A DNA stretch of 64,000 nt from assembly GCA_947589495.1 (NCBI GenBank), contig CANQAK010000003.1, positions 218-64,217 of the forward strand, written 5' to 3'. Made by a program: the position numbers and the translations under genes. Below, one piece after another: positions 7,571 to 64,000 of this stretch. Positions within the stretch are counted from its first letter, which is position 1; each line of letters opens with the position of its first letter. Source of the DNA: an uncultured Bacilli bacterium. Lineage in GTDB: Bacteria; Bacillota_I; Bacilli_A; RF39; UBA660. The notes beneath the pieces were generated by a model, which was not told the DNA's origin, searched no databases, and worked only from the letters and a program-made list of their open reading frames with translations.

Positions 7571-7644
7571 TATTATTTTCCTACTTTCTAAAAAAATTAT
7601 ACCAAAAATTTTTATTAATAAATAGTTTTAAATGTTATTTATGT

Positions 7645-7674: not shown

Positions 7675-8232
7675 CTAGTAGCCTTTATTTTTATAATATT
7701 CATATAATTCTTTAAATCTATTAAAATGAACAACTTCTCTTTGTCTTAAAAATAAAAGTGGTGCTAAAACATCTTCATCGTTTGTTAAATCAATTAAGTT
7801 TTCATATACTGCTCTTGCTTTTTGTTCAGCAGCCATATCTTCCATTAAATCTGCAATTGGATCAGCTGTAACGGCAAAATATGTTGCTGTAAAAGGTACT
7901 CCTGATGCATCAACTGGATAAATTCCTTTATTATGATCAGCATAATATGATGAAAGTCCTGCTTCTTCTAATTCTTTTAATGTCGCATTCTTAGTCAATT
8001 GGTGAACCATTGAACAAATCATCTCGCAGTGCCCAAGTTCTTCCGTACTAATATCGTTTAAAAGAGCTTTACCTTTGTCATCTGGCATAGTAAATTTTTG
8101 ACTAAAGTAACGCATTGCAGCAGCAAGTTCACCATTGGCTCCTCCAAATTGAGTTAATAAATATTTAGCCATTCTTAAATCTTTTTTACTAATACTTATT
8201 GGATAATTTGTGTGCTTAACATATTTAAACAT
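7675..8232 (-). CDS. cotJC: Spore coat protein CotJC / manganese catalase family
   Basis: FGGANGELAAAMRYFSQ and EELGHCEMI di-metal ferritin-like motifs. Adjacent to a CotJB-like gene. Confidence 0.85.
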   Translation of the reverse strand: MFKYVKHTNYPISISKKDLRMAKYLLTQFGGANGELAAAMRYFSQKFTMPDDKGKALLNDISTEELGHCEMICSMVHQLTKNATLKELEEAGLSSYYADHNKGIYPVDASGVPFTATYFAVTADPIADLMEDMAAEQKARAVYENLIDLTNDEDVLAPLLFLRQREVVHFNRFKELYEYYKNKGY

Positions 8233-8719
8233 AAATATTACCCCCTAAATTTTCCCATGACCATGGTCCATTAATCCATTCATATTTTTCACCACTAGTT
8301 TCATTTATTGTAAGTGGTCCATAACTTTTAATATATTCTTTTTTAGCTTCTTTTTCTTCTTTAATAAATTCTTCTAATAACATTAATGCATTTCTATCTT
8401 CTGGATGTAAATCTAAATATAGATTCATATCGTTAATAGCAAATGAATATTGCATAACATTAAATAATTTAGCTTCTCTATCATTTCTAGGTTTAATATT
8501 TACATATGTTAAATTCTTATATGGTTTATATTCATCTTTAAACATGTTTCCTCTTAAAAATCCTTCTTTGGCAGTTAAAAATTTACTAGAACTCATGTTA
8601 CTCATACTTTTCATATTACTCATGCTACCCATATTAGACATATCTTGTTTAGTATTTTGTAATCCTGCTAAACTTAATAATGAAAAATCTAAATCGATAT
8701 CGTTATTGTCAAATAACAT
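8225..8719 (-). CDS. cotJB: CotJB-like spore coat protein with an N-terminal CotJA-like segment and an MSN repeat
   Basis: The C-terminal half (FAINDMNLYLDLHPED...YGPLT) matches the CotJB pattern. The upstream segment EGFLRGNMFKDEYKPY resembles the CotJA core. Confidence 0.65.
   Translation of the reverse strand: MLFDNNDIDLDFSLLSLAGLQNTKQDMSNMGSMSNMKSMSNMSSSKFLTAKEGFLRGNMFKDEYKPYKNLTYVNIKPRNDREAKLFNVMQYSFAINDMNLYLDLHPEDRNALMLLEEFIKEEKEAKKEYIKSYGPLTINETSGEKYEWINGPWSWENLGGNIYV
8588..8641 (-). repeat. Six imperfect 9-nt tandem units (ATG AGY AAY) encoding MSN/MGS/MKS
   Basis: Read directly from the sequence: DMSNMGSMSNMKSMSNMSS within the cotJB-like ORF. Confidence 0.8.
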
Positions 8720-8777: not shown

Positions 8778-9458
8778 CTATTTTATTGCTTCAAATTCAT
8801 AAATATCTAATAATTCTTCTAAATCATCAGCTTTTAAAGATGTTCCATTAACACCATCTAAAATGTTAGTATCTAATATTTCCCCATTTCTAACATATAT
8901 TATGGCAGGTATTTGTTCTAAATCTTTTATATCTAAACTTTTTTCTATTGTTTCTAAGTAATTATTATCACTTTCTTTTAATTTAGTTAAATCAACATAA
9001 TAAAATATATCATTTAATTTATATTTATCTATTAATCTTTTTAAACCCTTCTCTAAATTATAAACATCTTCATCTTTAGTATATCCTAAATAAATAAAAT
9101 AAGATGATGGTGCTTCTTGCCTTATCTGACTTAAAGAATTTAAGTCATTGATGCTTGAATCAACAGTATTTGATGATATTAAATAACTTGTCATTAACTT
9201 TTCTTCTTCTTTTACTTGATACCATTTAAAGATATATAATACTAAAAGTATTGCTCCTAAAAGTATCGCTAGAGCTATTATATAATTTTTAGAATCTATT
9301 TTCTTTTCAATAACTACTTCTTTTGTCATTTTTTCTTTAGGAGCTTCTTTTTTTACATTGCTACTTTTGGTAGCATTACTCCTTTTTTTAGTAGCAGTTT
9401 TAGTTGATGTTTTAACATTTTCTTTTTCTTTAGTAACATCAGTCTTTTTTTGACTCAT
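8778..9458 (-). CDS. Membrane-anchored thioredoxin-fold-like protein lacking CxxC
   Basis: K-rich N-terminus, one TM, and a C-terminal pattern (FIYLGYTKDED...IPAIIYVRNGEILD) that is thioredoxin-like but has no cysteines. Confidence 0.4.
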   Translation of the reverse strand: MSQKKTDVTKEKENVKTSTKTATKKRSNATKSSNVKKEAPKEKMTKEVVIEKKIDSKNYIIALAILLGAILLVLYIFKWYQVKEEEKLMTSYLISSNTVDSSINDLNSLSQIRQEAPSSYFIYLGYTKDEDVYNLEKGLKRLIDKYKLNDIFYYVDLTKLKESDNNYLETIEKSLDIKDLEQIPAIIYVRNGEILDTNILDGVNGTSLKADDLEELLDIYEFEAIK

Positions 9459-9526
9459 TATTTATCATATCCTTTCATACTAATTTTAACACATTCCATT
9501 TTTATTTGTAAACTTCTTTTCTTAAC

Positions 9527-9562
9527 AAAAAGAAAGTATTTTTATTTTCTAAATACTTTCCC
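9527..9562 (-). terminator. Terminator after modular protein A
   Basis: Hairpin GAAAGTATTT / AAATACTTTC followed by TTTTTG on the minus strand. Confidence 0.6.
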
Positions 9563-9579
9563 TAAATTTTAATTTTTTT

Positions 9580-12045
9580 CTAACTCTCTATGTAGAAAGG
9601 ATTATCATATGTTCCTGAACCTGCAATTTTAACATTGTTCTTTAGATAGAAGACAGGACGAACCGAACGCATAGCGCTCAAATCGAAGATATAGATTTTG
9701 CCATCTATATCCACACCCCATGCATTGAAGTAAACACCTGTACTGAAACGCCCAATACGCGTCATGGTCCATTCTTGATAAGTTGTACTACTTGATTCAT
9801 TATTAATTTCATGTATCCAGCTTCCTTGACATGTTGTGTAATTATTTTTGCAATTGTATGTATGTCCTGTTGCACTTATTGCATATAAATAGTCACTTAC
9901 ATACATCAATCCTATTGATGATTCTTCACTTGTTTGTTGCCACTTTGTTCCTTCACTTTTTGGTACTAAAATTCCATTTGCATTATAATATTGTGTTGCT
10001 ACCTGTCCACTTTCTATTTTATATACTTCTTCTGATGTTATTGTACCCATATATTCTTCTCCTATGTCTCCATACCACCATTTTTGTGGTTCTATTTTTT
10101 CTTGTACTGTACTATCTAATTTACTTAAGAATGAACCACTTCCATCATTCAAAGTTTTATACATGTCACTTTGTTCCCATGCTGGACAGCCTTCTTTTGA
10201 ACCACAATAATTACTCTTTGATGAATCATTAGTTGATTTACTATTCCATGCAAACATATTTGTTCCACTTTTATTATATCTTATTTGTTTTATTACCTTT
10301 ATATTTCCTTCTGGAGTAATTCCTATGATTCGATACATATTATCATCGTATCCACTACTACTTGCATTGCAACTATTTTTTCCAACTTCTTTCAAACATA
10401 TATAGTTTTTTACATTTTTTCCCTTTAATGTATCTGCTCCTTGATATCTATACATTCCCCCAACTAAAGTTTTACTTAAAGTCTCTGTATCATCTGCCAA
10501 TCTTAACGTTTTTTCTTGATCTGTTGGTATTACTTCTGTTAATGTATATGGATCATCTACTGTTCCACTTCCATATAATGTTATATTACTCTTTAAATAG
10601 AAAACTGGGCGAACCGCATATCCAGTACTCAAAACATTATAATCAATATTTCCATTTGAAGTTACATACCATCCACCATAACGATTATCAGAATTACTAT
10701 ACAATCCCATACGCGTCATGATCCATTCATATCTTTCATTTCCAGACGTCGCTATTCCATTATTACTCATATGTATCCAACTGGATTTACATGTACTGTA
10801 ATCACTTTTTCTACAACTTGTATTATGTCCTAAACTGCTTTCTGCATATGCATAGTCATGTATATACATTAATCCTATATTGGCTTGTATTTTATTTGTC
10901 CAAATCCGATCTTCTATATATTTTCCATCATCTGGACTATAATATTTAGTATTTTCTTTACCTGCTTCTATTTTATATACTTCCTCTGTTGATATACTGG
11001 AATCTATATAATCCTTACTTATATCTCCGTATATCCATTGTTGTGGTTCTATTATATTTTTTATTTCTTCTTTTAACGAATTATAATAATCTTCATTTAA
11101 TGTACTATATATTTTACTTTCTGGCCATTCTTTATTTACAGAATTATCATCCCACCATTTTATCGCATTTCCATATCTTGTTTGTTTTATGACTTTTATA
11201 TTTCCTTCAGGAGTGATTCCTATAATCCTGTACATTTCATCACTTTGATTTGAACATTTTCCTTCTAAACATAAATAATTACTTTTTACTTCATTATTTG
11301 TTCCTTGATATCTATACATTCCTCCAACTAAAGTATCACTTAATGTGTTATTTGTATCATCACTTTGTAATTTCTTTACTAATTTTGCTCCACTATCTTC
11401 TCCACATTTTAAGTTATCTGCACTTATTGTTATATCTAACTCTTTATCTGCTAAATAATCTTGTTCATCATTCTTTTTATTAACTAAATATGCATATGCA
11501 TCTATTTTTGATGAACTATTTCCTGTTACTTTAAATGTTATTCCTTCATATACTTTTTTACCTTCATCTTTTATATCAAATAAATCTAGTTCTTGTTCTT
11601 CAAATGTATTATTTTCATCTCCCTTTAAATGTAAAAATAAATCTCCTTGTTCTAATGCTTCTCCCATTGAACCTTGTGTATTAGTCATTGTTACTGTTAT
11701 ATCTGCTGTACATTCATATTTATCTTCATTCGTTGCATCAGTTATTTCAAATTTAGTTATGGTATGTGTTCCTTCTTCTTCAGTTAACACATAATTCTTT
11801 TCATCATCTGCATAATAATTTCTTGCATTATTTGGTGCCATATCTTCTTCATCTACTATTATTTTTAACTTTGGTGTTGGTACTGAAAGAGTTACTAACC
11901 CTGATTCTTCTGTTTGTAGTGTTATTACACTACTATTTGATGTATTTATTACTCCCATATTAAAGTAAGCATATGTAGCTCCAATTACTAACACTATCAT
12001 TATTGCTACTCCAATTATTAATTTTACTTTTGTTTTTTTATCCAT
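9580..12045 (-). CDS. Secreted modular protein A: SipW/TasA-type signal, beta-rich N-domain and two lectin-like modules (family member 1)
   Basis: N-terminus KVKLIIGVAIMIVLVIGATYAYFNM. Two internal repeats each contain LVGGMYRYQG, MYRIIGITPEGNIKVIKQ, IGLMY.(H/S)DY.YA, EW(I/T)MTR, VRPVFYLK and GSGT..(D/N)P(F/Y). Confidence 0.8.
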   Translation of the reverse strand: MDKKTKVKLIIGVAIMIVLVIGATYAYFNMGVINTSNSSVITLQTEESGLVTLSVPTPKLKIIVDEEDMAPNNARNYYADDEKNYVLTEEEGTHTITKFEITDATNEDKYECTADITVTMTNTQGSMGEALEQGDLFLHLKGDENNTFEEQELDLFDIKDEGKKVYEGITFKVTGNSSSKIDAYAYLVNKKNDEQDYLADKELDITISADNLKCGEDSGAKLVKKLQSDDTNNTLSDTLVGGMYRYQGTNNEVKSNYLCLEGKCSNQSDEMYRIIGITPEGNIKVIKQTRYGNAIKWWDDNSVNKEWPESKIYSTLNEDYYNSLKEEIKNIIEPQQWIYGDISKDYIDSSISTEEVYKIEAGKENTKYYSPDDGKYIEDRIWTNKIQANIGLMYIHDYAYAESSLGHNTSCRKSDYSTCKSSWIHMSNNGIATSGNERYEWIMTRMGLYSNSDNRYGGWYVTSNGNIDYNVLSTGYAVRPVFYLKSNITLYGSGTVDDPYTLTEVIPTDQEKTLRLADDTETLSKTLVGGMYRYQGADTLKGKNVKNYICLKEVGKNSCNASSSGYDDNMYRIIGITPEGNIKVIKQIRYNKSGTNMFAWNSKSTNDSSKSNYCGSKEGCPAWEQSDMYKTLNDGSGSFLSKLDSTVQEKIEPQKWWYGDIGEEYMGTITSEEVYKIESGQVATQYYNANGILVPKSEGTKWQQTSEESSIGLMYVSDYLYAISATGHTYNCKNNYTTCQGSWIHEINNESSSTTYQEWTMTRIGRFSTGVYFNAWGVDIDGKIYIFDLSAMRSVRPVFYLKNNVKIAGSGTYDNPFYIES

Positions 12046-17715: not shown

Positions 17716-17755
17716 AAAACACTTCAATTTTTATCTTTGAAGTGTTTTATTTTTT
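17715..17755. terminator. Bidirectional terminator between the ATPase and modular protein B
   Basis: Hairpin AAAACACTTCAA / TTGAAGTGTTTT with flanking A and T runs. Confidence 0.65.
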
Positions 17756-20150
17756 ATGATGCTATGTAGAATGGATCAGAAGTTGTACCTGCTCCTTCTA
17801 ATTTTACATCATTCGTTAGATAGAAGACTGGACGAACTGCATAAAAATAATTAAAACTTCCACCTCCGACAGTCCCACTCACGAGAACCGCCCATGCATA
17901 GAAAGTATTGCCCGAACTACCTTGACCAAGTCGTGTCATAATCCATTCATCATTAGAATTATTTCCATTATTACTCATATGTATCCAACTAGTTTTACAA
18001 TTTGCATAATCTACTATACAACTTGATGTTGATCCTGTTCCACCTAATGCATATGCATAATCATGTATATACATTAATCCAATTGGTACTAATTCTGTCC
18101 TTTTTGTCCATTTTTGATCTGTGATACTTTTTTTTGTCAAAGGTTCCAAATATTTTGTTGTTGCTTGACCTGTTTCTATCTTATATGCTTGTTCTGCTGT
18201 TATATGCTCACTATCTACTAAATCATTACCTATATCTCCATACAACCATTTTTGTGATTCAATTTTTTCTTTTATTTCACTATTTAAATTATTATAAAAA
18301 GTTGTATTTAATGACGTATATACATAGCTATTTATCCACTCTATATTTGTTGTATAACTACTAAACCATGTAGTTGTATCTCCATATTTCGTTTGTTTTA
18401 TTACTTTTATACTCCCTTCTTCAGTTATTCCTATAATTCTATACATGTTATCATCGTAACCATTAGTTTTTGCACTAGTACATCCATTTGATCCTACTTC
18501 ACTTAAACATATATAATTGTTTACTTTATTACCATTTAATGTATCTGATCCTTGATATCTATACATTCCTCCGACTAATGTCGAGCTTAACGCATTAGTT
18601 GTATCATATTCTCTTAAATAATTTTCTTGCTCTGTTGGTATTACTTTGGTTAATGTGAATGGATCTTCTGTTGTTCCACTCCCATATAATTGGATATCAT
18701 TTTTCAGATAGAAGACTGGGCGTACCACATACTCAGCACTCAAGTAGCTATAGTTGAACCGTCCATCCGAACTCACAAACCACGCACCGAAGTAAGGGTT
18801 CGGGCTACTATACCTACCACGACGCGTCATAGTCCATTCATATTGCTCCTTTCCGGTTGTTGCTCCACCATTATTACTCATGTGTATCCAACTTGTTTTA
18901 CAATCTGCATAATCTTGTATACAACTTGATGTTGATCCTGTTCCACCTAATGCATATGCGTAGTCATGTATATACATTAATCCTATATTGGCTGATACTT
19001 TTTCTGTCCATTTTTGATCTTCGATATAATCTCCACTATCTGGGTCATAATATTTTGTATTTTCTTGCCCTGTCTCTATTTGATATGCTGTATCTGTAGA
19101 TATATTAGAATTTATATACTCATTACTTATATCTCCATACATATATTCCCATTCTTGTATTTTTCCCTGTATTATTGTATCTAAACTATTATAGAAATTT
19201 GTATTTAGTGTTTCAAATATATCTGCATCTAGCCACTCTTTATTATTCTCTATTCCTGAATAACCTGTCCACCACTTCATTGCACTTCCATACCTTGTTT
19301 GTTTTATGACTTTTATATTTCCTTCAGGGGTTACTCCTATAATTCTATACATATCATCTGATCCTGAAGAACATTTTCCTTCTAAACATAAGTAATTATT
19401 AACTTGATCGTTAGTACCTTGATATCTGTACATTCCTCCGACTATTTCTTTACTTAATCCACTATTTTTTTGTGATTTTAAATATGCTGTTACTGGACCA
19501 TCTACATTATTTACACATTTTAGGTTTTCTGTTTTAATTGTTAAATTTAATGCCTTACCTGCTAAATGATTTTGTTCATTTTCTGTATTTTCTATATAAG
19601 CATACGCTTGTATATCTTGTGATGTGTTTCCCTCTATATTAAATGTTACATTACTATATGTTTTTGTTCCAATTGTTGATAGTTCACTTAAATCTAATTC
19701 TTCTTCATTTAAACTTGCTCCACTTAAATGGATAAACATATCTCCTTCTTTTAATGCTGCTCCCATTGAACCATCTGTTACATCTAATTCTAATTTTATA
19801 TCTGCTGTACATTGGTATTTAGCTGTCTCTTTTCCATCTGTTACTGTTAATCGTGCTATAGAATATGTTGCTGCATTTTGTTCTGTTTTATATGATTCTG
19901 TGTCTAAATTGGTTGCATAATACTTTCTTTGATTTGCTAAAGACATATCTGATGCTTTTAGTTTTATATATAACTCTGATACTGGACTTGATAATGTTAC
20001 TAATCCATTATTTCTTGCTTGTACTCTTATGACACTACTATTTCCTAAAGTTGTTACTCCCATTGTAAAGTAAGCATATGTTGCTCCTACTACTAAGACA
20101 AATAAAACTGCTACTGCTATTATTATTTTTACTTTATTTTTCTTATCCAT
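17754..20150 (-). CDS. Secreted modular protein B (family member 2)
   Basis: N-terminus KVKIIIAVAVLFVLVVGATYAYFTM. Same N-domain as A and two modules with the same motif series. Confidence 0.8.
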   Translation of the reverse strand: MDKKNKVKIIIAVAVLFVLVVGATYAYFTMGVTTLGNSSVIRVQARNNGLVTLSSPVSELYIKLKASDMSLANQRKYYATNLDTESYKTEQNAATYSIARLTVTDGKETAKYQCTADIKLELDVTDGSMGAALKEGDMFIHLSGASLNEEELDLSELSTIGTKTYSNVTFNIEGNTSQDIQAYAYIENTENEQNHLAGKALNLTIKTENLKCVNNVDGPVTAYLKSQKNSGLSKEIVGGMYRYQGTNDQVNNYLCLEGKCSSGSDDMYRIIGVTPEGNIKVIKQTRYGSAMKWWTGYSGIENNKEWLDADIFETLNTNFYNSLDTIIQGKIQEWEYMYGDISNEYINSNISTDTAYQIETGQENTKYYDPDSGDYIEDQKWTEKVSANIGLMYIHDYAYALGGTGSTSSCIQDYADCKTSWIHMSNNGGATTGKEQYEWTMTRRGRYSSPNPYFGAWFVSSDGRFNYSYLSAEYVVRPVFYLKNDIQLYGSGTTEDPFTLTKVIPTEQENYLREYDTTNALSSTLVGGMYRYQGSDTLNGNKVNNYICLSEVGSNGCTSAKTNGYDDNMYRIIGITEEGSIKVIKQTKYGDTTTWFSSYTTNIEWINSYVYTSLNTTFYNNLNSEIKEKIESQKWLYGDIGNDLVDSEHITAEQAYKIETGQATTKYLEPLTKKSITDQKWTKRTELVPIGLMYIHDYAYALGGTGSTSSCIVDYANCKTSWIHMSNNGNNSNDEWIMTRLGQGSSGNTFYAWAVLVSGTVGGGSFNYFYAVRPVFYLTNDVKLEGAGTTSDPFYIAS

Positions 20151-25084: not shown

Positions 25085-25161
25085 TGGTGTTCTTGGAGGG
25101 AGTTGAACCCTCGGCCTTACGCGTCGGAGGCGTACGCTCTATCCAGCTGAGCTACAAGAAC
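25085..25161 (-). tRNA. tRNA-Arg (anticodon CCG), CCA encoded
   Basis: 77-nt cloverleaf folded by hand: acceptor GTTCTTG/CAAGAAC, D arm GCTC-AGCTGGATA-GAGC, anticodon arm TACGC-CTCCGAC-GCGTA, T arm GAGGG-TTCAACT-CCCTC, then ACCA. Confidence 0.9.
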
Positions 25162-29937: not shown

Positions 29938-31314
29938 TTACAAGACTATTTTGCTTTCAATATAATCTTTTATTTCATCTACTTTTAAAGTAATTTGTTT
30001 CATCGTATCACGTTCTCTTATAGTAACTGTATCTTCATTTAAAGTGTTATCATCAATTGTAATTGTAAATGGAGTACCAACTGCATCACTTCTTCTATAT
30101 CTTTTACCAATACTTCCTGCTTCATCGTATGTACAGTAAAAATGTTTACTTAACTGTGCATATACATCTTGAGCTTTTTCAGCATGAATTTTTTTAACTA
30201 AAGGTAAGATAGTTGCTTTTATTGGTGCTAGTGATGGATCTATTTTTAATACTAATCTTTCTTCATCATCAATTAATTCTTTAGTATAAGCATCAGTAAG
30301 TATTGCTAAAAGTAGTCTTTCAACTCCTACAGAAGGTTCAATTACATATGGTAAATATTTTTCATTTGTTTCAGGATCTAAATATCTTAAATCTTCTTTA
30401 GAGTGTTCCATATGAACACCTAAATCATAATCAGTTCGATCAGCTATTCCCCAAAGTTCTCCCCATCCAAATGGAAATTTATATTCAATATCAGTAGTAG
30501 CTTTACTATAGAATGATAATTCTTCTTTTTTATGATCTCGATAACGTAAATTTTCTTTTTTAAGTCCTAAAGATTTTAAAAAATCTATACAATAATTTTT
30601 CCAAAAACCAAACCATTCTAAATCAGTCCCTGGTTTACAAAAGAATTCTAATTCCATTTGTTCAAATTCTCTCATTCTAAAAATAAAATTACCTGGTGTT
30701 ATTTCATTTCTAAAACTTTTACCATATTGTCCTATTCCAAAAGGAATTTTAGCTCTCATACTTCTTTCAACATTTTTAAAGTTAACAAAAATTCCTTGGG
30801 CAGTCTCTCCTCTTAAATATATTTTATTTTTAGCATCTTCCGTAACACCTTGACTAGTTTCAAATAATAAATTGAATTTACGAATATTAGTAAAGTCATG
30901 ACTGCCACACTTAGGACATAAAATATTTTCTTTATTTATTAAATCAATTAATTCTTCTTCACTTAAACCATCACCAGTAATTTCTCCCTTAGTAGCATCT
31001 TCAATTAATTTATCAGCTCTAAATCTACTTTTACAATGTTTACAATCTATTAAAGGATCTGAAAATGATGCAACATGACCAGATGCTACCCACACTTTAG
31101 GATTCATTAAAATAGCAGAGTCTAGTCCATAATTATATGAACTTTCTTCAATAAATTTTTTCCACCAGGCTTTTTTAATATTTTGTTTTAATAAGACTCC
31201 TAATGGACCATAATCCCATGCATTGGCAAGACCTCCATATATTTCACTTCCTTGAAAGATGAATCCATATTGTTTAGAATAATTAACTAATTCTTCCATT
31301 GTAACTTTTTCCAT
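29938..31314 (-). CDS. glyQS: Glycine--tRNA ligase (dimeric GlyQS type)
   Basis: [22 protein letters not shown] and class II motifs. Start set at the ATG at 31314, which is preceded by AAGGAGA. The upstream in-frame extension belongs to the T-box leader. Confidence 0.95.
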
Positions 31315-31317
31315 AAA

Positions 31318-31455
31318 ATTTCTCCTTCTAATAAAAAAACTCCTAGTTCTTGTAAGGACGGGTAATCCCCGCGGTTCCACCTTACTTATTCCTAGAAGAA
31401 TCTCTCTTAATTATATAGCTCGGGTTTTCCACACCGTCATCACTTGTATATTTAG
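31318..31455 (-). promoter_or_regulatory. T-box leader (glycine) upstream of glyQS
   Basis: The minus strand contains AAGGTGGAACCGCGGGG (T-box consensus core GGTGGNACCGCG), an upstream GTGATGA kink-turn-like element, and a T-run before the RBS. Confidence 0.7.
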
Positions 31456-31467
31456 ATTATATCTAAA

Positions 31468-32109
31468 CTATTTAATTTTATCAACTAAATTTGTTAATTT
31501 TTTAACTTCTATACTGTTAATTTTAACGTATTTAAGATAACAATCAGAACAAAGTGGGACATATTCTATGTCCTTTACCATTCCATCATCAATCATTATT
31601 GTAGGACCATTATCAGTATATTTACCATTTACTTTTCTAGCATTAAAAATAGCTTTCTTACCACACCGACATAAACTACTACTACCTATTTCTTCTATTA
31701 TGTCGGCAATTGCAAATATTTGCGATATGCCCTTATCAAATATTTCTCCTTTAAAGTTACTTTTAAGTCCATAGCATATAACAGGAATGTTTATAAGATG
31801 TGATATAGTCCATAATTCTCTTATTTGTTTTTCATTTAAAAGTTCTACTTCATCTACTAGTATAACTTTAGCAGTATAATATTTTTTATAATATTTTTCT
31901 TTTAATAAAGATTCTTCATCTTTAAGTAAAATATCTACTGCTCTTTTCATTCCATTTCTTGATATTATGTTATTTCTACCTTTAGTATCTTTTATTGATT
32001 TAATAATTATTACTTTAAAATTATTCTCTTCATAATTGTATGCTGTTTGTAAAATATTTAATGTTTTACCACCATTCATTGCACTATACTTAAAAACCAT
32101 TTCTGCCAT
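31468..32109 (-). CDS. tdk: Thymidine kinase
   Basis: P-loop-like YSAMNGGKT, VDEVELL, and C-terminal Zn cysteines CRCG...CSDC. Confidence 0.9.
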   Translation of the reverse strand: MAEMVFKYSAMNGGKTLNILQTAYNYEENNFKVIIIKSIKDTKGRNNIISRNGMKRAVDILLKDEESLLKEKYYKKYYTAKVILVDEVELLNEKQIRELWTISHLINIPVICYGLKSNFKGEIFDKGISQIFAIADIIEEIGSSSLCRCGKKAIFNARKVNGKYTDNGPTIMIDDGMVKDIEYVPLCSDCYLKYVKINSIEVKKLTNLVDKIK

Positions 32110-32234
32110 TATTTACCACCTACCTATAGTATAATTTAGAATACTATTAGTTACAACTATAATATTACTTTTCTAATTTATTAATAAAAAAGTATAAATA
32201 TTATTTTATCAATATCTATACTTTTAATGGATCA

Positions 32235-34400
32235 TTATTTTATGTAGAATGGATCAGTGGTTGATCCTGAACCTCCAAGTTCTATATCAGACTTCAGATA
32301 GAAGACAGGGCGAACCGCATTCGTAACGTCCAAGGAGTTGCGGTAGACAGCGCCAGTCTGACCCAAATACCAAGCATAGAAGACAGTACTTGAGCTACTA
32401 TACCGACCTACACGTGTCATGGTCCATTCAGAATCAGATGCATTTCCATTTTGTTTCAAATGAATCCACCCATTATCTATACATTTTTTATTGGAACTGT
32501 CTGTTTTTGAATAATGACATCCATCTTCTTTTGATTGGTAATAATAATCATGTAAGTAGATTAATCCTATGTTACCTGTTTTTTTTCCATCCCATTTTTT
32601 TGTTATGATTCCATTTTCTTTTTCTGATGGTAATTTTCCATAGTATTGACTATTTTGTTTCCCTGTTTCTATTTGATATAAATTTTCTCCTGTTAAATTT
32701 GTTACATATTGATATTCTATATCACCATACCACCAGTCCCATTCCTGAATTTTATTTTTTATTTCTTCACTTAGTGAATTGTAAAATGTTTCATTTAGTG
32801 TTGTATACATTTCACTATTTGGCCATTCGGGACAGCCATTTGTTTGATCACATTTATATTTTTCATTTGAATCAGTTTCACTATATTTCGTGTTCCATCT
32901 ATATGTACTTCCATATTTTGTTTGTTTTATGACTTTTATATTTCCTTCTGGGGTTATTCCTATGATTCGGTACATATCTTCACTTTTATATCCACATTTT
33001 TCATCATTTAGTTTTCCTAAACATATATAGTTATCTACACTACTTCCTTGATAACGATACATTCCTCCGACTAAGGTTGAACTTAACGTTTTATTCGAAT
33101 CTTTATCTCTTAAATAATTTTCTTGATTTGTTGGTTCGGTTAATGTAAATGGATTATCTACTGTTCCACTTCCATATAATTTTATATTATTCTTTAAATA
33201 GAAAACTGGGCGCACCGCAAACGGAGCGTGCAAGCCGTTGCTGTTGACATGGCCAAGTGCATTTACATACCACGCGCCAAAGAAAGTGCTCGCGCCATTA
33301 TGCCGACCTATACGCGACATGGTCCATTCGTTATCAGATGTATTCCCATTTTGCGACAAATGCATCCAACCATCATTCATACATTTTTTATATACACTAT
33401 CTCCTTTTTCATAATGACAATTGTTTTGTTGTGATTGATAATAATAATCATGTAAGTATATTAATCCTATATTAGCTTTGTCGCTCATTTTTGTCCATTT
33501 TATATCTTTTGTCGATTCTATTAATGTTCCACTTTTATCATAATATTGTGTTGATGCATTTCCTGTTTCTATATTATACACTTCATCTGCTGTAGTTAAC
33601 GTTCCAAGATAATCATATCCTATATCTCCATACCACCATTTTTGTGGTTCTATTTTATTTTGTATATTATCATTAAGTGAATTGTAAAATGTGTCATTTA
33701 ATGTTTTATATATTTCACTTTGTTCCCATGTTGGACAATCTTCACCTGTACAATAATAATCTTCAGAACTATAGTTTGAATCTACACTATATTTTGTATC
33801 CCATTTATATTTCCCTATACTGGTTTGTTTTATAACTTTGATATTTCCTTCAGGAGTGATTCCTATGATTCGATACATATCATCTGATTTTTCAGAACAT
33901 TTTCCTTCTAAACATAAGTAATTATTTACTTGGGCATTTGTTCCTTGATATCTATACATTCCTCCAACTGGTTCAGAACTTAACCCATTACTCTTTTTTA
34001 ATTGTTCTATTAATTCTTTTGCATTACTCTTATCAAAATATACATAACAATATACTGCTTGATTTGTTCTTACACTAAATTTTTTATCTGTATATGTTAA
34101 TACATTTGCTACTGCTAATCCTTTAGAATCTATACATCCTGATTTATCTGCATTATAATTATATCCTTCTGTTGGAAAATCATTTTTAGTACTTTGTTTA
34201 TATTCTCCATTTTCTTCTTGTAACATAATTGCAAACATTCCACTTTTTGATGAATTATTATTAACAAGTTTTACTTCATCTAATTGTGTTTCTTTATCCG
34301 ATAATTTATTGTTTATTAAAAATATACTACTTACTATTGTTAGTATTACTATTATTAATATTATATATATTCTATTTTTTGTATTAAGTTTATTTTTCAT
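32235..34400 (-). CDS. Secreted modular protein C (family member 3, different N-terminal domain)
   Basis: Signal anchor IYIILIIVILTIVSSIF, a ~130-aa N-domain, then two modules with PVGGMYRYQG/LVGGMYRYQG, MYRIIGITPEGNIKVIKQ, IGLIYLHDYYYQS, EWTM(S/T)R, VRPVFYLK and GSG..(D/N)PF. Confidence 0.8.
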   Translation of the reverse strand: MKNKLNTKNRIYIILIIVILTIVSSIFLINNKLSDKETQLDEVKLVNNNSSKSGMFAIMLQEENGEYKQSTKNDFPTEGYNYNADKSGCIDSKGLAVANVLTYTDKKFSVRTNQAVYCYVYFDKSNAKELIEQLKKSNGLSSEPVGGMYRYQGTNAQVNNYLCLEGKCSEKSDDMYRIIGITPEGNIKVIKQTSIGKYKWDTKYSVDSNYSSEDYYCTGEDCPTWEQSEIYKTLNDTFYNSLNDNIQNKIEPQKWWYGDIGYDYLGTLTTADEVYNIETGNASTQYYDKSGTLIESTKDIKWTKMSDKANIGLIYLHDYYYQSQQNNCHYEKGDSVYKKCMNDGWMHLSQNGNTSDNEWTMSRIGRHNGASTFFGAWYVNALGHVNSNGLHAPFAVRPVFYLKNNIKLYGSGTVDNPFTLTEPTNQENYLRDKDSNKTLSSTLVGGMYRYQGSSVDNYICLGKLNDEKCGYKSEDMYRIIGITPEGNIKVIKQTKYGSTYRWNTKYSETDSNEKYKCDQTNGCPEWPNSEMYTTLNETFYNSLSEEIKNKIQEWDWWYGDIEYQYVTNLTGENLYQIETGKQNSQYYGKLPSEKENGIITKKWDGKKTGNIGLIYLHDYYYQSKEDGCHYSKTDSSNKKCIDNGWIHLKQNGNASDSEWTMTRVGRYSSSSTVFYAWYLGQTGAVYRNSLDVTNAVRPVFYLKSDIELGGSGSTTDPFYIK

Positions 34401-34575
34401 AACTTAACCCTTCCTTTACTACCTATTATGTATAATTTATTTATCTTTTATACATTGTAACGACTTACGGTATTTATAACATTATTCTTAATATAACTAT
34501 AAATTATCTAACTTAATTTGTCAATAACAACAGATGTGTTTTACAAAAAATTAGTAAACTAAAAAAAACAATTGT

Positions 34576-35319
34576 TTATAATTTAGCAATTGTTTTTAAA
34601 AAATCTTTACTCTTTAAATATAAACCAGTATAATCATCATAAAAGTTAGTTAGAAATTTATTAATTTCGTTAATAATATCTTCTTTTAATGATAATTTAG
34701 AAATACTTTTTATATCTACTATATAATACATATTTAATACTTTAATTATACTTATAGGAATTATTCTTTCATTTGTATAACAATTTTTACAAATAAGACC
34801 ACCTTTCTCACTAGATAATGTAACTATTTCTTTTTTACTTCCACAGTTAACACAACTAACTAAGTTTAATCCTACTCCTAAATAATCTAAAAGTCTTAGT
34901 TCAATTATATTAGTGATGACGATGGGATTTAATCCCTCGTCTATTTTAATTAAAGCATTAATAAAATCATCATAGATAGCATTATTGTTAGTTTGTTTTA
35001 ATACTTGATTTACTAAATCTAAAAGGTATGATGCATAGCTTATTAATAAAATATCATTTTTAATATTTTTAAATGGATTAATAATATCAACATTATTTAA
35101 TAAAGATAATTTATTTTTTTTATAATATATATGAAATATACCATAACTAAGTTTCATAGTACTGCTTCTTAATTTACTTTTAATACCCATAGCACCTTTA
35201 CATAAAATACCTATAATACCATATTCTTTAGTAAATACATTAATAATTTTTGAAGTATCACCATAAGGTGTTTCTTTTAATACAATACCTTCAACACTTA
35301 TAAGTGTACTACTACCCAT
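34576..35319 (-). CDS. recO: DNA repair protein RecO
   Basis: 247 aa with an OB-fold N-terminus and Zn motif CVNCG...CKNC. Sits in the era-recO order. Confidence 0.88.
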   Translation of the reverse strand: MGSSTLISVEGIVLKETPYGDTSKIINVFTKEYGIIGILCKGAMGIKSKLRSSTMKLSYGIFHIYYKKNKLSLLNNVDIINPFKNIKNDILLISYASYLLDLVNQVLKQTNNNAIYDDFINALIKIDEGLNPIVITNIIELRLLDYLGVGLNLVSCVNCGSKKEIVTLSSEKGGLICKNCYTNERIIPISIIKVLNMYYIVDIKSISKLSLKEDIINEINKFLTNFYDDYTGLYLKSKDFLKTIAKL

Positions 35320-35334
35320 AAAATCACCAACTAC

Positions 35335-35415
35335 TTATTTACATTTTTTATAATTAAGGTAATCTTCTACTTTACCACTATTTTTAAATTTTTCCCAAGC
35401 TTCTTTTTTATTCAT
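35335..35415 (-). CDS. yqzL: YqzL-family small protein (not in the ORF track)
   Basis: Hand-translated as MNKKEAWEKFKNSGKVEDYLNYKKCK, with RBS GGAGGAAATAAG upstream. Lies between era and recO, as yqzL does in Bacillus. Confidence 0.6.
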   Translation of the reverse strand: MNKKEAWEKFKNSGKVEDYLNYKKCK

Positions 35416-35457
35416 CTTATTTCCTCCTACTAATATGATGGAGAAAATATTTATTTT

Positions 35458-36348
35458 TTATTCATAATCAAAGAAACCTAATTCTTTTAAATATTTTTCT
35501 TTATCTTTCCAATTTTCAATAACTTTAACATATAGTTCTAGGTAAACTTGTTTACCCAACATTTCTTCTAAATCTTTTCTAGCTAAAATACCAACCTTTT
35601 TTAGCATTTCTCCTTCATGTCCAATAATAATTTTTTTAATATTTTGTTTATCTACTATTATATCAACATTTATATTTACAATATCTTTTTTATATTCAAT
35701 ATTAGTAGTATGACATGTAATAGAATGTGGTATTTCTTCAGTTGTATTTTGAAGTAATTTTTCTCTAACAAATTCAGATGCTAAAAAAGGAATACTACTA
35801 CTAGTAATTATTTCATCATCATAATATTTTAAATTATCTTTTAAATACTTTTTAATTACTTCAATTAAATGATCAATATTATCATATTCTTTAGCAGATA
35901 CTGGTACTATTTCAGAAAAAGAATAATCTTTATATTCATTTATAGCCATTATTAATGTTTCTTTAGAAACTTTATCTATTTTATTTATTACTAAAATAAC
36001 AGGAATTTTATTTTTTAAGACATTTTCCATTAAAAATTTATCGCCTTTACCTATTCCTGATGATATATCCACTACTAATAAAATTAAATCAACATCTTTA
36101 GTTAAAGCATAAGCTTGTTTATTTAAAACTTTACCTAATTTATTTAATGGTTTAGCTATCCCTGGTGTATCAACAAAAATAATTTGAGTATCATTACCAT
36201 GATATATTCCTTCAATAATATTTCTAGTTGTTCCCGATACATTAGATGTAATAGCTACTTTATGTTCAATAATACTATTTAAAAGAGTACTTTTACCTAC
36301 ATTTGGTCTACCAACAATACTTACAAATCCACTTTTCATATAAATCAC
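35458..36348 (-). CDS. era: GTPase Era
   Basis: GRPNVGKST, DTPG and NKID motifs plus a C-terminal KH domain. Confidence 0.95.
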   Translation of the reverse strand: MIYMKSGFVSIVGRPNVGKSTLLNSIIEHKVAITSNVSGTTRNIIEGIYHGNDTQIIFVDTPGIAKPLNKLGKVLNKQAYALTKDVDLILLVVDISSGIGKGDKFLMENVLKNKIPVILVINKIDKVSKETLIMAINEYKDYSFSEIVPVSAKEYDNIDHLIEVIKKYLKDNLKYYDDEIITSSSIPFLASEFVREKLLQNTTEEIPHSITCHTTNIEYKKDIVNINVDIIVDKQNIKKIIIGHEGEMLKKVGILARKDLEEMLGKQVYLELYVKVIENWKDKEKYLKELGFFDYE

Positions 36349-36759
36349 CTAAAAAATACTTAAAATTAATTTTAAAACATAAGGAACAAATATAATTAAA
36401 TTAACTATAATAGCTAAAACTGTCATTATTCCAGTTGCAGCAGAACCACAATCTTTAGCTATTTTAGCATATTCATTATATTCTTGTGTAACCATATCAA
36501 CAGTAGCTTCAATCGCTGTATTAATAAGCTCTATAATAGTTATAAGAGCAAGACTTCCAAATGATATAACCCATTCTAAAAATTCAATATCAAAAATTAT
36601 ACCTAAAATAATGATAAAACATGCTGATAGAGCTTCCACTAAAAAACTTGATTCATTTTTAAAACAATATGCTAAACCTTGATATGAATACTTACATTTA
36701 TTAAAAATATTTCTTATTAAACTAACATTCTTTTTTTCTTCTTGTTTTTTCATCTTCAT
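36349..36759 (-). CDS. dgkA: Diacylglycerol/undecaprenol kinase DgkA
   Basis: Three-TM protein of 136 aa with the ELINTAIEATVD motif, between ybeY and era. Confidence 0.85.
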   Translation of the reverse strand: MKMKKQEEKKNVSLIRNIFNKCKYSYQGLAYCFKNESSFLVEALSACFIIILGIIFDIEFLEWVISFGSLALITIIELINTAIEATVDMVTQEYNEYAKIAKDCGSAATGIMTVLAIIVNLIIFVPYVLKLILSIF

Positions 36760-63679: not shown

Positions 63680-64000
63680 TTAAGAAACTATGTAGAATGG
63701 ATCATCGGATGTTCCATTTCCTTGAATTTCTGTACCAGACGATAGATAGAAGACTGGACGAATCGCGTTTAGAGTCTTTAAACTATTTTCGTAGACACTG
63801 CCACTCGAACGCACTAACAACGCACCGAAGTTATTGTTCGATTTATCCCAACGACCTATACGTGTCATGATCCATTCATCATCTAATGAATTTCCGTTAT
63901 TTTTCATATGCATCCATCCTTGCGTCTGACAATTAGTATATTGTGGATTTTTATCTGATTGACAATTGCCTTGTTTTGATTGGTAATAATAGTCATGTAA
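63680..64000 (-). CDS. Secreted modular protein D, C-terminal part only (family member 4, truncated by the window edge)
   Basis: The reading frame stays open to position 64000 (hand translation LHDYYYQSKQGNCQSDKNPQYTNCQTQGWMHMKNNGNS...). Ends with EWIMTR...IRPVFYLS...GNGTSDDPFYIVS. Confidence 0.75.
   Translation of the reverse strand, partial: LHDYYYQSKQGNCQSDKNPQYTNCQTQGWMHMKNNGNSLDDEWIMTRIGRWDKSNNNFGALLVRSSGSVYENSLKTLNAIRPVFYLSSGTEIQGNGTSDDPFYIVS

Follow-up and report, generated by a model that had tools for sequence, protein, structure and literature searches.

Probable remote variable regions of a chromosomal diversity-generating retroelement in tandem-module DUF6273 surface proteins of an uncultured Bacilli bacterium

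Gene C and its G+C-rich module ends

The stretch of DNA analysed here, referred to as the window, comprises 64,000 nucleotides of contig CANQAK010000003.1 (assembly GCA_947589495.1) from an uncultured Bacilli bacterium. Our subject is gene C, which encodes a membrane-anchored surface protein with two repeated modules, and in particular the short G+C-rich segment at the end of each module, here called a tip. A first-pass annotation of this DNA had read the tips as variable regions (VRs) of a diversity-generating retroelement (DGR) whose reverse transcriptase (RT) and template repeat (TR) lie outside the window. In this study, we compare the tips with a TR recovered next to an RT gene on a separate contig and with complete DGRs in related bacteria. 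The gene and its two tips are located as follows.

32235..34400, minus strand: gene C, open reading frame (ORF) with translation, 721 aa; membrane-anchored, two tandem DUF6273 (C-lectin-like) modules
32298..32429, minus strand: tip C2, probable variable region of module 2, from EWTMTR to RPVFY; 132 nt, 50% G+C, 19% A
33198..33329, minus strand: tip C1, probable variable region of module 1, mid-protein; 132 nt, 54% G+C, 19% A

Protein C begins with an N-terminal membrane anchor and a small beta-rich domain, followed by the two repeated modules of ~290 aa, each of which terminates in a tip. DUF6273 is known as a C-lectin-like domain that DGRs target repeatedly, the variable region occupying its C-terminal end (PMC10743442, PMC11792537, bioRxiv 10.1101/2024.10.15.618418). 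Altogether four genes of this surface-protein family, A to D, lie amid housekeeping genes in the 64 kb, and they carry seven tips (A1, A2, B1, B2, C1, C2, and D). Proteins A and C score above the Pfam cut-off for DUF6273 (E=2e-7 for C) and protein B slightly under it. An AlphaFold model of the one-module paralog D (P0012; predicted local distance difference test score, pLDDT, 85.6) matches predicted phage DUF6273 proteins down to E 3.5e-7, and a fold search of the PDB with the same model returned C-type lectin-like domains only, none of them significant. Judged by the Pfam assignment and the matches of the P0012 model, the tips of gene C close a C-lectin-type domain. Gene C is flanked by recO and the thymidine kinase gene (tdk), with era also around it and infB, ftsK, and a Clp ATPase gene close by. 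This context is housekeeping, and the locus is not a prophage.

The composition of the tips departs strongly from that of their surroundings. The whole window is 24.5% G+C, and 130-nt intervals exceeding 42% G+C are confined to one tRNA-Arg gene and to the family tips other than A1. G+C content at third codon positions (GC3) is 0.5-0.7 in the tips (~0.7 in C1 and C2) vs ~0.1 in the rest of gene C. When C1 is compared with C2 across the final ~15 codons ahead of AVRPV, 50% of first and second positions are changed, as against 7% of third positions; in the modules outside the tip ends, 20-60% of third positions differ. Such scrambling of first and second positions, combined with frozen G+C-rich third positions, is the product of templating by AAC/AAT codons. 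Two flank motifs each occur exactly seven times in the window, always on the minus strand, against 0.3 and 0.0 occurrences expected from shuffled sequence.

These measurements agree with most of what the first-pass annotation had described. It gave 48% and 54% G+C for the two tips of protein C and ~21% coding-strand A for the second, where we measure 50% and 54% G+C and 19% A in both, and the peptides it quoted are reproduced. The flanks conserved in all seven modules, the discordant codon usage of the tips, and the lectin-like nature of the module were likewise correctly seen, as was a length difference of one codon, A2 and B2 being one codon shorter than the remaining five tips. The claim that the tips differ at almost every position was overstated, since several alignment columns (G, W, G, L) are conserved. 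The reported lack of an RT or template in the 64 kb is borne out: when the window was scanned for a copy of the template with adenine mismatches tolerated, nothing other than the tips themselves matched, and tblastn of RT, Avd, and MutS-like (MSL) proteins against the window gave a best E of 0.85. In the window Rfam recognizes a tRNA-Arg and nothing else; this tRNA-Arg(CCG) gene, at 25085-25161, is the sole G+C-rich segment apart from the tips.

A template repeat and cassette on a separate contig

The search for the cassette started from the RT of a complete DGR in a relative (locus L033, described in the next section), which as a query retrieved protein P0142 (66% identical) and led from there to contigs of the ENA assembly ERZ27249221. 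For P0142 and for P0023, a family member 52% identical to protein C, the recorded longest contig has the same length, 36,590 bp, and both proteins are recorded from NCBI and ENA sources, as are the proteins of the window. The cassette, P0023, and gene C are found on separate contigs of this one assembly.

L081 = NODE_9709, 3.3 kb: RT P0142 and cassette; coverage 4.2x
L083 = NODE_15199: P0023; coverage 2.2x
L001 = NODE_5447: exact protein C, 100% identical to window positions 30998-36572; coverage 3.5x

The 5' end of the cassette contig falls within a TR, AACACTAACTTCAATGCGTGGAATGTGAATTCGAGTGGCAATGTCAACAACAACAACTTGAACAATACGAATGCGGTTCGCCCA, of which 84 nt are recovered. The order along the contig is TR, a spacer-like stretch of ~110 nt, MSL, avd, RT, and an ORF of 95 aa, so that the cassette contains both avd and MSL as accessory genes. 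The RT (P0142, 375 aa) lies ~1 kb downstream of the template, off the window; it matches RVT_1 with E=1e-16 and carries the motifs LPIGNMTSQ and YMDD, the first of which agrees with the (I/L)GxxxSQ motif of the DGR clade. The MSL protein matches MutS_I (E=4e-5, 24.2 bits against a cut-off of 20.6). For Avd the matches are to NCBIfam DivGenRetAVD (E=8e-9) and to Pfam bAvd (E=8e-6), neither of which reaches the curated cut-off. The reading frames of RT, avd, and MSL are intact and near-identical among three ENA assemblies, with 1 single-nucleotide polymorphism (SNP) in ~3 kb. The gene past the cassette codes for a member of a nucleotidyltransferase family and not for a phage protein. The ~110 nt that follow the TR (L081:85-200; CTATAACTTG..GATAATATGGTTA.GGCTATATTTT..GAAAGATAGAGGACAAAGATTATCTAGGA...) are conserved with the units of the relatives' loci L022 and L033, that is in three lineages, and they probably correspond to a spacer RNA priming cDNA synthesis. 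On the cassette loci Rfam detected a single tRNA, in L033, and otherwise nothing, and the spacer-like region is without an Rfam family.

To compare the tips with the template, the recovered TR was split into its first 36 nt and its last 48 nt, mismatches were counted at template adenines (A) and at other template positions (non-A), and adenine enrichment among the mismatches was tested by hypergeometric probability.

C2: first 36 nt, 7 A / 6 non-A; last 48 nt, 11 A / 0 non-A
C1: first 36 nt, 7 A / 6 non-A; last 48 nt, 10 A / 1 non-A
P0023 (cassette-adjacent): first 36 nt, 8 A / 2 non-A; last 48 nt, 6 A / 0 non-A
B1: first 36 nt, 8 A / 1 non-A; last 48 nt, 10 A / 8 non-A
D: first 36 nt, 6 A / 3 non-A; last 48 nt, 6 A / 10 non-A
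A2: first 36 nt, 8 A / 7 non-A; last 48 nt, 11 A / 7 non-A
B2: first 36 nt, 8 A / 8 non-A; last 48 nt, 11 A / 11 non-A
A1: first 36 nt, 7 A / 10 non-A; last 48 nt, 8 A / 10 non-A

Within gene C, the comparison resolves into the following segments, in which the junctions resembling a site for initiation of mutagenic homing (IMH) are also given.

32307..32354, minus strand: C2 3' 48 nt; TR match, mismatches 11/11 at adenines, P=1.4e-6
32355..32390, minus strand: C2 upstream 36 nt; aligns to the recovered TR, diverged, 7 A and 6 non-A mismatches
32298..32318, minus strand: C2 IMH-like junction; G+C-rich GCGGTTCGCCC then GTCTTCTAT, where TR homology ends
33207..33254, minus strand: C1 3' 48 nt; mismatches 10/11 at TR adenines, P=6e-5
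33198..33218, minus strand: C1 IMH-like junction; GCGGTGCGCCCAGTTTTCTAT

The 3' 48 nt of C2 appear to have been rewritten recently, and in the corresponding part of C1 the lone non-adenine change is GTT to GTG. Over these 48 nt, no other of the 79 family tips compared fits as well as C2, with 0 non-adenine mismatches, and C1, with 1; the next has 4, and the median is 15. P0023 behaves in the same manner, 14 of its 16 mismatches over the 84 nt falling at TR adenines (P=3e-6). Furthermore, a template that had been drafted from C1 and C2 alone before the cassette contig was found agrees with the real TR at 37 of 39 nt, and both misses are at TR adenines. Farther 5', C1 and C2 diverge from the TR and from each other mainly at third positions (C/T, G/A), and this looks like ordinary drift.

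The proposal of the first-pass annotation that the tips are DGR variable regions served by an RT and template elsewhere is supported, and its main caveat, the missing RT and template, is resolved by the cassette on L081. Its more specific expectation, mismatches only at template adenines, is realized in the last 48 nt (11/11 in C2 and 10/11 in C1) and fails in the preceding 36 nt, where each tip has 6 non-adenine mismatches. Nor can the seven tips be treated alike, as had been done: a fit to the TR is confined to C1, C2, and the 5' portion of B1, and A1, A2, B2, and D carry many non-adenine differences.

The TR also accounts for the unusual composition of the tips. It is 36% A and 43% G+C, and 29 of its 30 adenines occupy codon position 1 or 2. 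Its non-adenine positions are 67% G+C, and randomisation of all adenine sites is computed to give 61% G+C and 9% A. The 50-54% G+C and 19% A observed in C1 and C2 fall between the TR and full randomisation, so that their composition is explained quantitatively. Since AAC/AAT codons of the TR are set amid G+C-rich invariant positions, the product becomes A-depleted, NNC-rich, and far higher in G+C than the 24% G+C host genome. At the junction, the template reads GCGGTTCGCCCAGCCCACTAT and the variable regions read GCGGTTCGCCC(T/A)GTCTTCTAT; past the shared GCGGTTCGCCC, the template continues with AGCCCACTATAAC and the variable regions with GTCTTCTATCTGAAG, which is the distinction between IMH and IMH*.

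Searches of sequence collections did not add further copies. A degenerate pattern derived from C1 and C2 gave 0 matches in genome, metagenome, and viral contig collections, and the exact template gave 0 matches in metagenome and viral contig collections. As the degenerate pattern would match C1 and C2 themselves, the source genome must be absent from those collections, and the result is no evidence against the template.

Complete retroelements in relatives and the paralog family

Non-coding copies of tips in relatives were sought by BLAST of all tips against fetched related loci. At L033, a TR copy lies ~200 nt downstream of the variable region, and 22 of 22 differences over 112 nt are changes from template A to non-A (P=3e-14); genes for a MutS-domain-I protein, bAvd, and an RVT_1 reverse transcriptase come after the copy. 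At L022 (Lapin-017__bin4, CANQZN010000011.1), four tandem units of ~326 nt at 8940-10234 precede one MSL-avd-RT set. Each unit consists of a distinct template repeat and a conserved spacer-like region of ~110 nt, and ahead of it stands a conserved TTATAATAA motif which looks like a promoter -10 box. Single units of L022 match best to variable regions on other contigs of the same metagenome-assembled genome (MAG), namely L036, L057, and L048. The variable region at L022:7363-7492 is a mosaic whose 5' part corresponds to template unit 4 and whose 3' part corresponds to unit 3, a pattern suggestive of rounds of partial, 3'-anchored rewriting that drew on different templates one after another. A keyword search of two DGR surveys (PMC5758913, PMC8144416) for multiple template repeats gave nothing. 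Between the target gene and the template array of L022, an ORF resembling PD-(D/E)XK-family transposases is located at 7781-8668. Because complete cassettes stand beside homologous genes of rabbit-gut Bacilli MAGs at both L033 and L022, the family is a proven DGR target family.

Targets adjacent to a cassette share a further feature, a G+C-rich hairpin-like element (e.g., ATCGCCCAGGGTGGCTTTTGGCGCCCAGGCGAT) just past the stop codon, ~82 nt after the tip. It is conserved at L083:2112-2144, L033:1575-1610, and L022:~7575-7605, and is absent after remote G+C-rich tips in relatives. It may serve as a hairpin for target recognition or as a terminator, or mark where the template transcript begins. 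Either it is dispensable for remote targeting, or remote tips are fed otherwise, for example by gene conversion. To our knowledge, a downstream hairpin is not universal among DGRs.

A search with the family yielded >795 matches, the nearest relatives being 58% identical. The family is expanded in uncultured Bacilli MAGs (GTDB representative genomes), nearly all of which come from rabbit-gut ("Lapin") samples, and the search for related loci found from fifteen to >20 loci in single rabbit-gut MAGs, a very large investment for small genomes of ~25% G+C. Tips of these relatives range from <36% to 59% G+C, in genomes of 22-31% G+C. The paralogs of gene C in the window and their tips are as follows.

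9580..12045, minus strand: gene A (P0010), paralog with two modules
9646..9774, minus strand: tip A2, 45% G+C; probably a decayed variable region
10597..10728, minus strand: tip A1, 36% G+C; most decayed
17754..20150, minus strand: gene B (P0014), paralog with two modules
17820..17948, minus strand: tip B2, 44% G+C; probably a decayed variable region
18708..18839, minus strand: tip B1, gene B module 1; 50% G+C
63680..64000, minus strand: 3' part of gene D (P0012, 417 aa), which continues past the window end; one module
63746..63877, minus strand: tip D, 42% G+C; probably a decayed variable region

Over the seven tips there is a gradient of 36-54% G+C and of 6-20 non-adenine mismatches per 84 nt. 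The 5' 36 nt of B1 show adenine bias (P=1.3e-4), and A2, with 19 A and 14 non-A mismatches, shows a weak residual bias (P=9e-4). With their many non-adenine differences, A1, A2, B2, and D look like fossil variable regions. The A1 peptide differs by 2 residues from the module-1 tip of P0004, a protein encoded on a different contig, probably of another genome, and likely the counterpart of protein C with the same N-terminus. Because of this near-identical tip, A1 looks fixed rather than hypervariable, and its presence in P0004 implies that modules or tips have been exchanged between paralogs or lineages. A single template for all seven tips was considered and rejected, as most alignment columns vary and such a template would need to be mostly adenine.

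Origin of the tips and comparison with known systems

We consider it likely that tips C1 and C2 are variable regions of a chromosomal DGR whose cassette lies outside the window. The sequences show the compositional anomaly of the tips, the relationship between TR and VR, the gene content of the cassette, and the complete DGRs beside the homologues in relatives; we infer in addition that cassette and window probably belong to one genome, that retrohoming probably hit gene C directly, and that it may still be operating. In the proposed mechanism, the cassette would consist of the target paralog P0023, the TR with the conserved spacer-like RNA region, MSL, avd, and RT. The TR would be transcribed, and the RT together with Avd would make cDNA from it, misincorporating opposite template adenines. 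This cDNA would then replace the homologous end of each DUF6273 module, anchored at the G+C-rich junction GCGGTTCGCCC, while the other five tips of the window would be older VRs drifting back to the host composition. Since the adenine-only signature is limited to the 3' ~48 nt, the rewriting would be 3'-anchored and partial, or a second template would be involved. For the partial fit of C1 and C2 the likeliest account is 3'-anchored partial rewriting, with the cDNA entering at the G+C-rich junction and the exchange being resolved where internal homology occurs; a second template is a possible alternative. Transfer in the Bordetella system has a 3'-to-5' polarity, which is consistent with partial rewriting of C1 and C2.

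A more extended proposition is put forward only tentatively, and we would rather doubt than assert it in full: that one chromosomal MSL-avd-RT DGR of a very A+T-rich uncultured Bacilli lineage serves remote VRs of a dispersed family of membrane-anchored tandem C-lectin proteins, including two VRs in one protein and one that lies mid-gene, by partial, 3'-anchored retrohoming of only ~48 nt of the template and without the G+C-rich element that follows the VR of the cognate target. If true, a cycle of VR birth and decay would be readable from G+C content across the family, and the arrays of four template-plus-spacer units in relatives would yield mosaic variable regions.

Several observations weigh against reading C1 and C2 as variable regions of the retroelement on L081. 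Cassette and window are not physically linked; what ties them is that they occur together in one assembly at similar low coverage and that TR and VR match. The recovered TR amounts to 84 nt only, its first ~35 nt being absent from L081, and the upstream 36 nt of C1 and C2, with 6 non-adenine mismatches each, leave part of both tips unexplained by it. A hairpin-like element was looked for after C1 and C2, and none was found. C1 and P0023 have two identically mutated codons in common (GCT, TTT), which could reflect common descent or selection and not independent retrohoming. Finally, tip D is identical in both recorded protein variants (P0012, P0121), and the sole second copy of C (L001) is identical as well.

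These observations bear differently on the alternatives. One of them regards C1 and C2 as fossil variable regions, once written by a DGR, no longer targeted, and merely younger than the other five tips. We hold this to be unlikely, though it deserves serious attention: the gradient of the tips in G+C content and non-adenine mismatches resembles progressive decay, the 5' parts of C1 and C2 have already diverged, the C1 junction carries the non-adenine change GTT to GTG, and the two available copies of C are without variation. However, C2 has 0 non-adenine changes in 48 nt despite the strong A+T mutational pressure that has visibly eroded the other tips, and the RT, avd, and MSL frames are intact, with 1 SNP in ~3 kb among three ENA assemblies. 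It is also quite improbable in our view that the DGR rewrites only the adjacent P0023 and that C1 and C2 received DGR sequence second-hand, by recombination or gene conversion across the flanks. C1, C2, and P0023 have different sets of adenine-site substitutions, C1 and C2 differing from each other at 11 such sites in 48 nt; for conversion, P0023 would have had to act as donor in two or more different historical states. The intact non-adenine positions, including the G+C-rich third positions, argue for very recent writing, and for non-phage DGRs there is ample documentation of direct remote targeting (PMC5758913). In favour of conversion, the DNA of the flanks shows strong conservation in 7/7 tips, the first 31 nt of C1 and the doubly mutated codons GCT and TTT are common to the P0023 variable region, the module-1 tip of P0004, near-identical to A1, indicates that tips or modules do move between paralogs, and C1 and C2 are without the G+C-rich element of the cassette-adjacent targets.

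An origin with no retroelement at all, through selection (rare-codon pausing, amino-acid composition) or from horizontally acquired DNA, we regard as barely credible. The window itself is indeed without RT or template, but adenine-only mismatches against a real template beside an RT, the third positions kept while first and second positions are scrambled, and the same anatomy with complete DGRs in relatives all contradict such an origin. Rare-codon pausing and horizontal transfer were rejected as candidates, the composition of the tips being accounted for by the template.

The reading of C1 and C2 as remote DGR targets has consequences for how such targets are found. A compositional signal alone, namely a G+C-rich, A-depleted, and codon-discordant end of a lectin module in an A+T-rich genome, can flag remote targets, which standard DGR finders miss because they need an RT nearby; Roux et al. 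(2021) state that their own approach was unable to detect remote targets (PMC8144416). Moreover, the rabbit-gut and related uncultured Bacilli, with dozens of DUF6273 surface-protein paralogs, add a poorly known group of DGR hosts, and in the DUF6273 family the extent of decay toward host composition gives an order of variable regions from active through partly rewritten to fossil.

The mechanism itself is not new. Remote targets, MSL genes, and DUF6273 targets have all been published. Remote targets were found for 45 of 372 DGRs and are restricted to non-phage DGRs; the survey that gives these figures also describes MSL accessory genes and G+C-rich flanks on either side of the mutagenic region (PMC5758913). 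With the Mtd/Brt system of Bordetella phage BPP-1, the present case shares adenine-specific changes, AAC-type codons, a G+C-rich end of homology followed by divergence, and a C-lectin-type fold; unlike in BPP-1, there is no hairpin directly after the variable region, the targets are remote and multiple, and an MSL accessory gene is present. Phage DUF6273 targets (tentaclins, Faecalibacterium prophage targets, Toutatisvirus) belong to the same domain family and have the variable region at the C-terminal end, and DGRs with two targets have been described (PMC10743442, PMC11792537, bioRxiv 10.1101/2024.10.15.618418). Those targets are receptor-binding or decoration proteins encoded beside the cassette, whereas the genes described here are cellular and stand amid housekeeping genes, in a window without RT, avd, or MSL.

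The variable regions of the Treponema denticola DGR also close a C-type-lectin-type fold, and its targets are of the FGE-sulfatase type. As here, that system is cellular and non-phage, with one RT and template serving dispersed targets, seven of them non-adjacent, and its cassette has an HRDC accessory gene where the present one has MSL and avd (PMC5758913). The present system differs from it in the DUF6273 target domain, in having two variable regions in one protein, and in a clean fit to the template over the 3' ~48 nt only. The MSL DGRs (architecture D of Wu et al., 2018, e.g., that of Legionella pneumophila) have, as here, a small MutS-domain-I protein together with avd and RT (PMC5758913); what sets the present system apart from these examples is its very A+T-rich uncultured Bacilli host and its membrane-anchored targets of tandem DUF6273 modules, which belong to a large family of paralogs.

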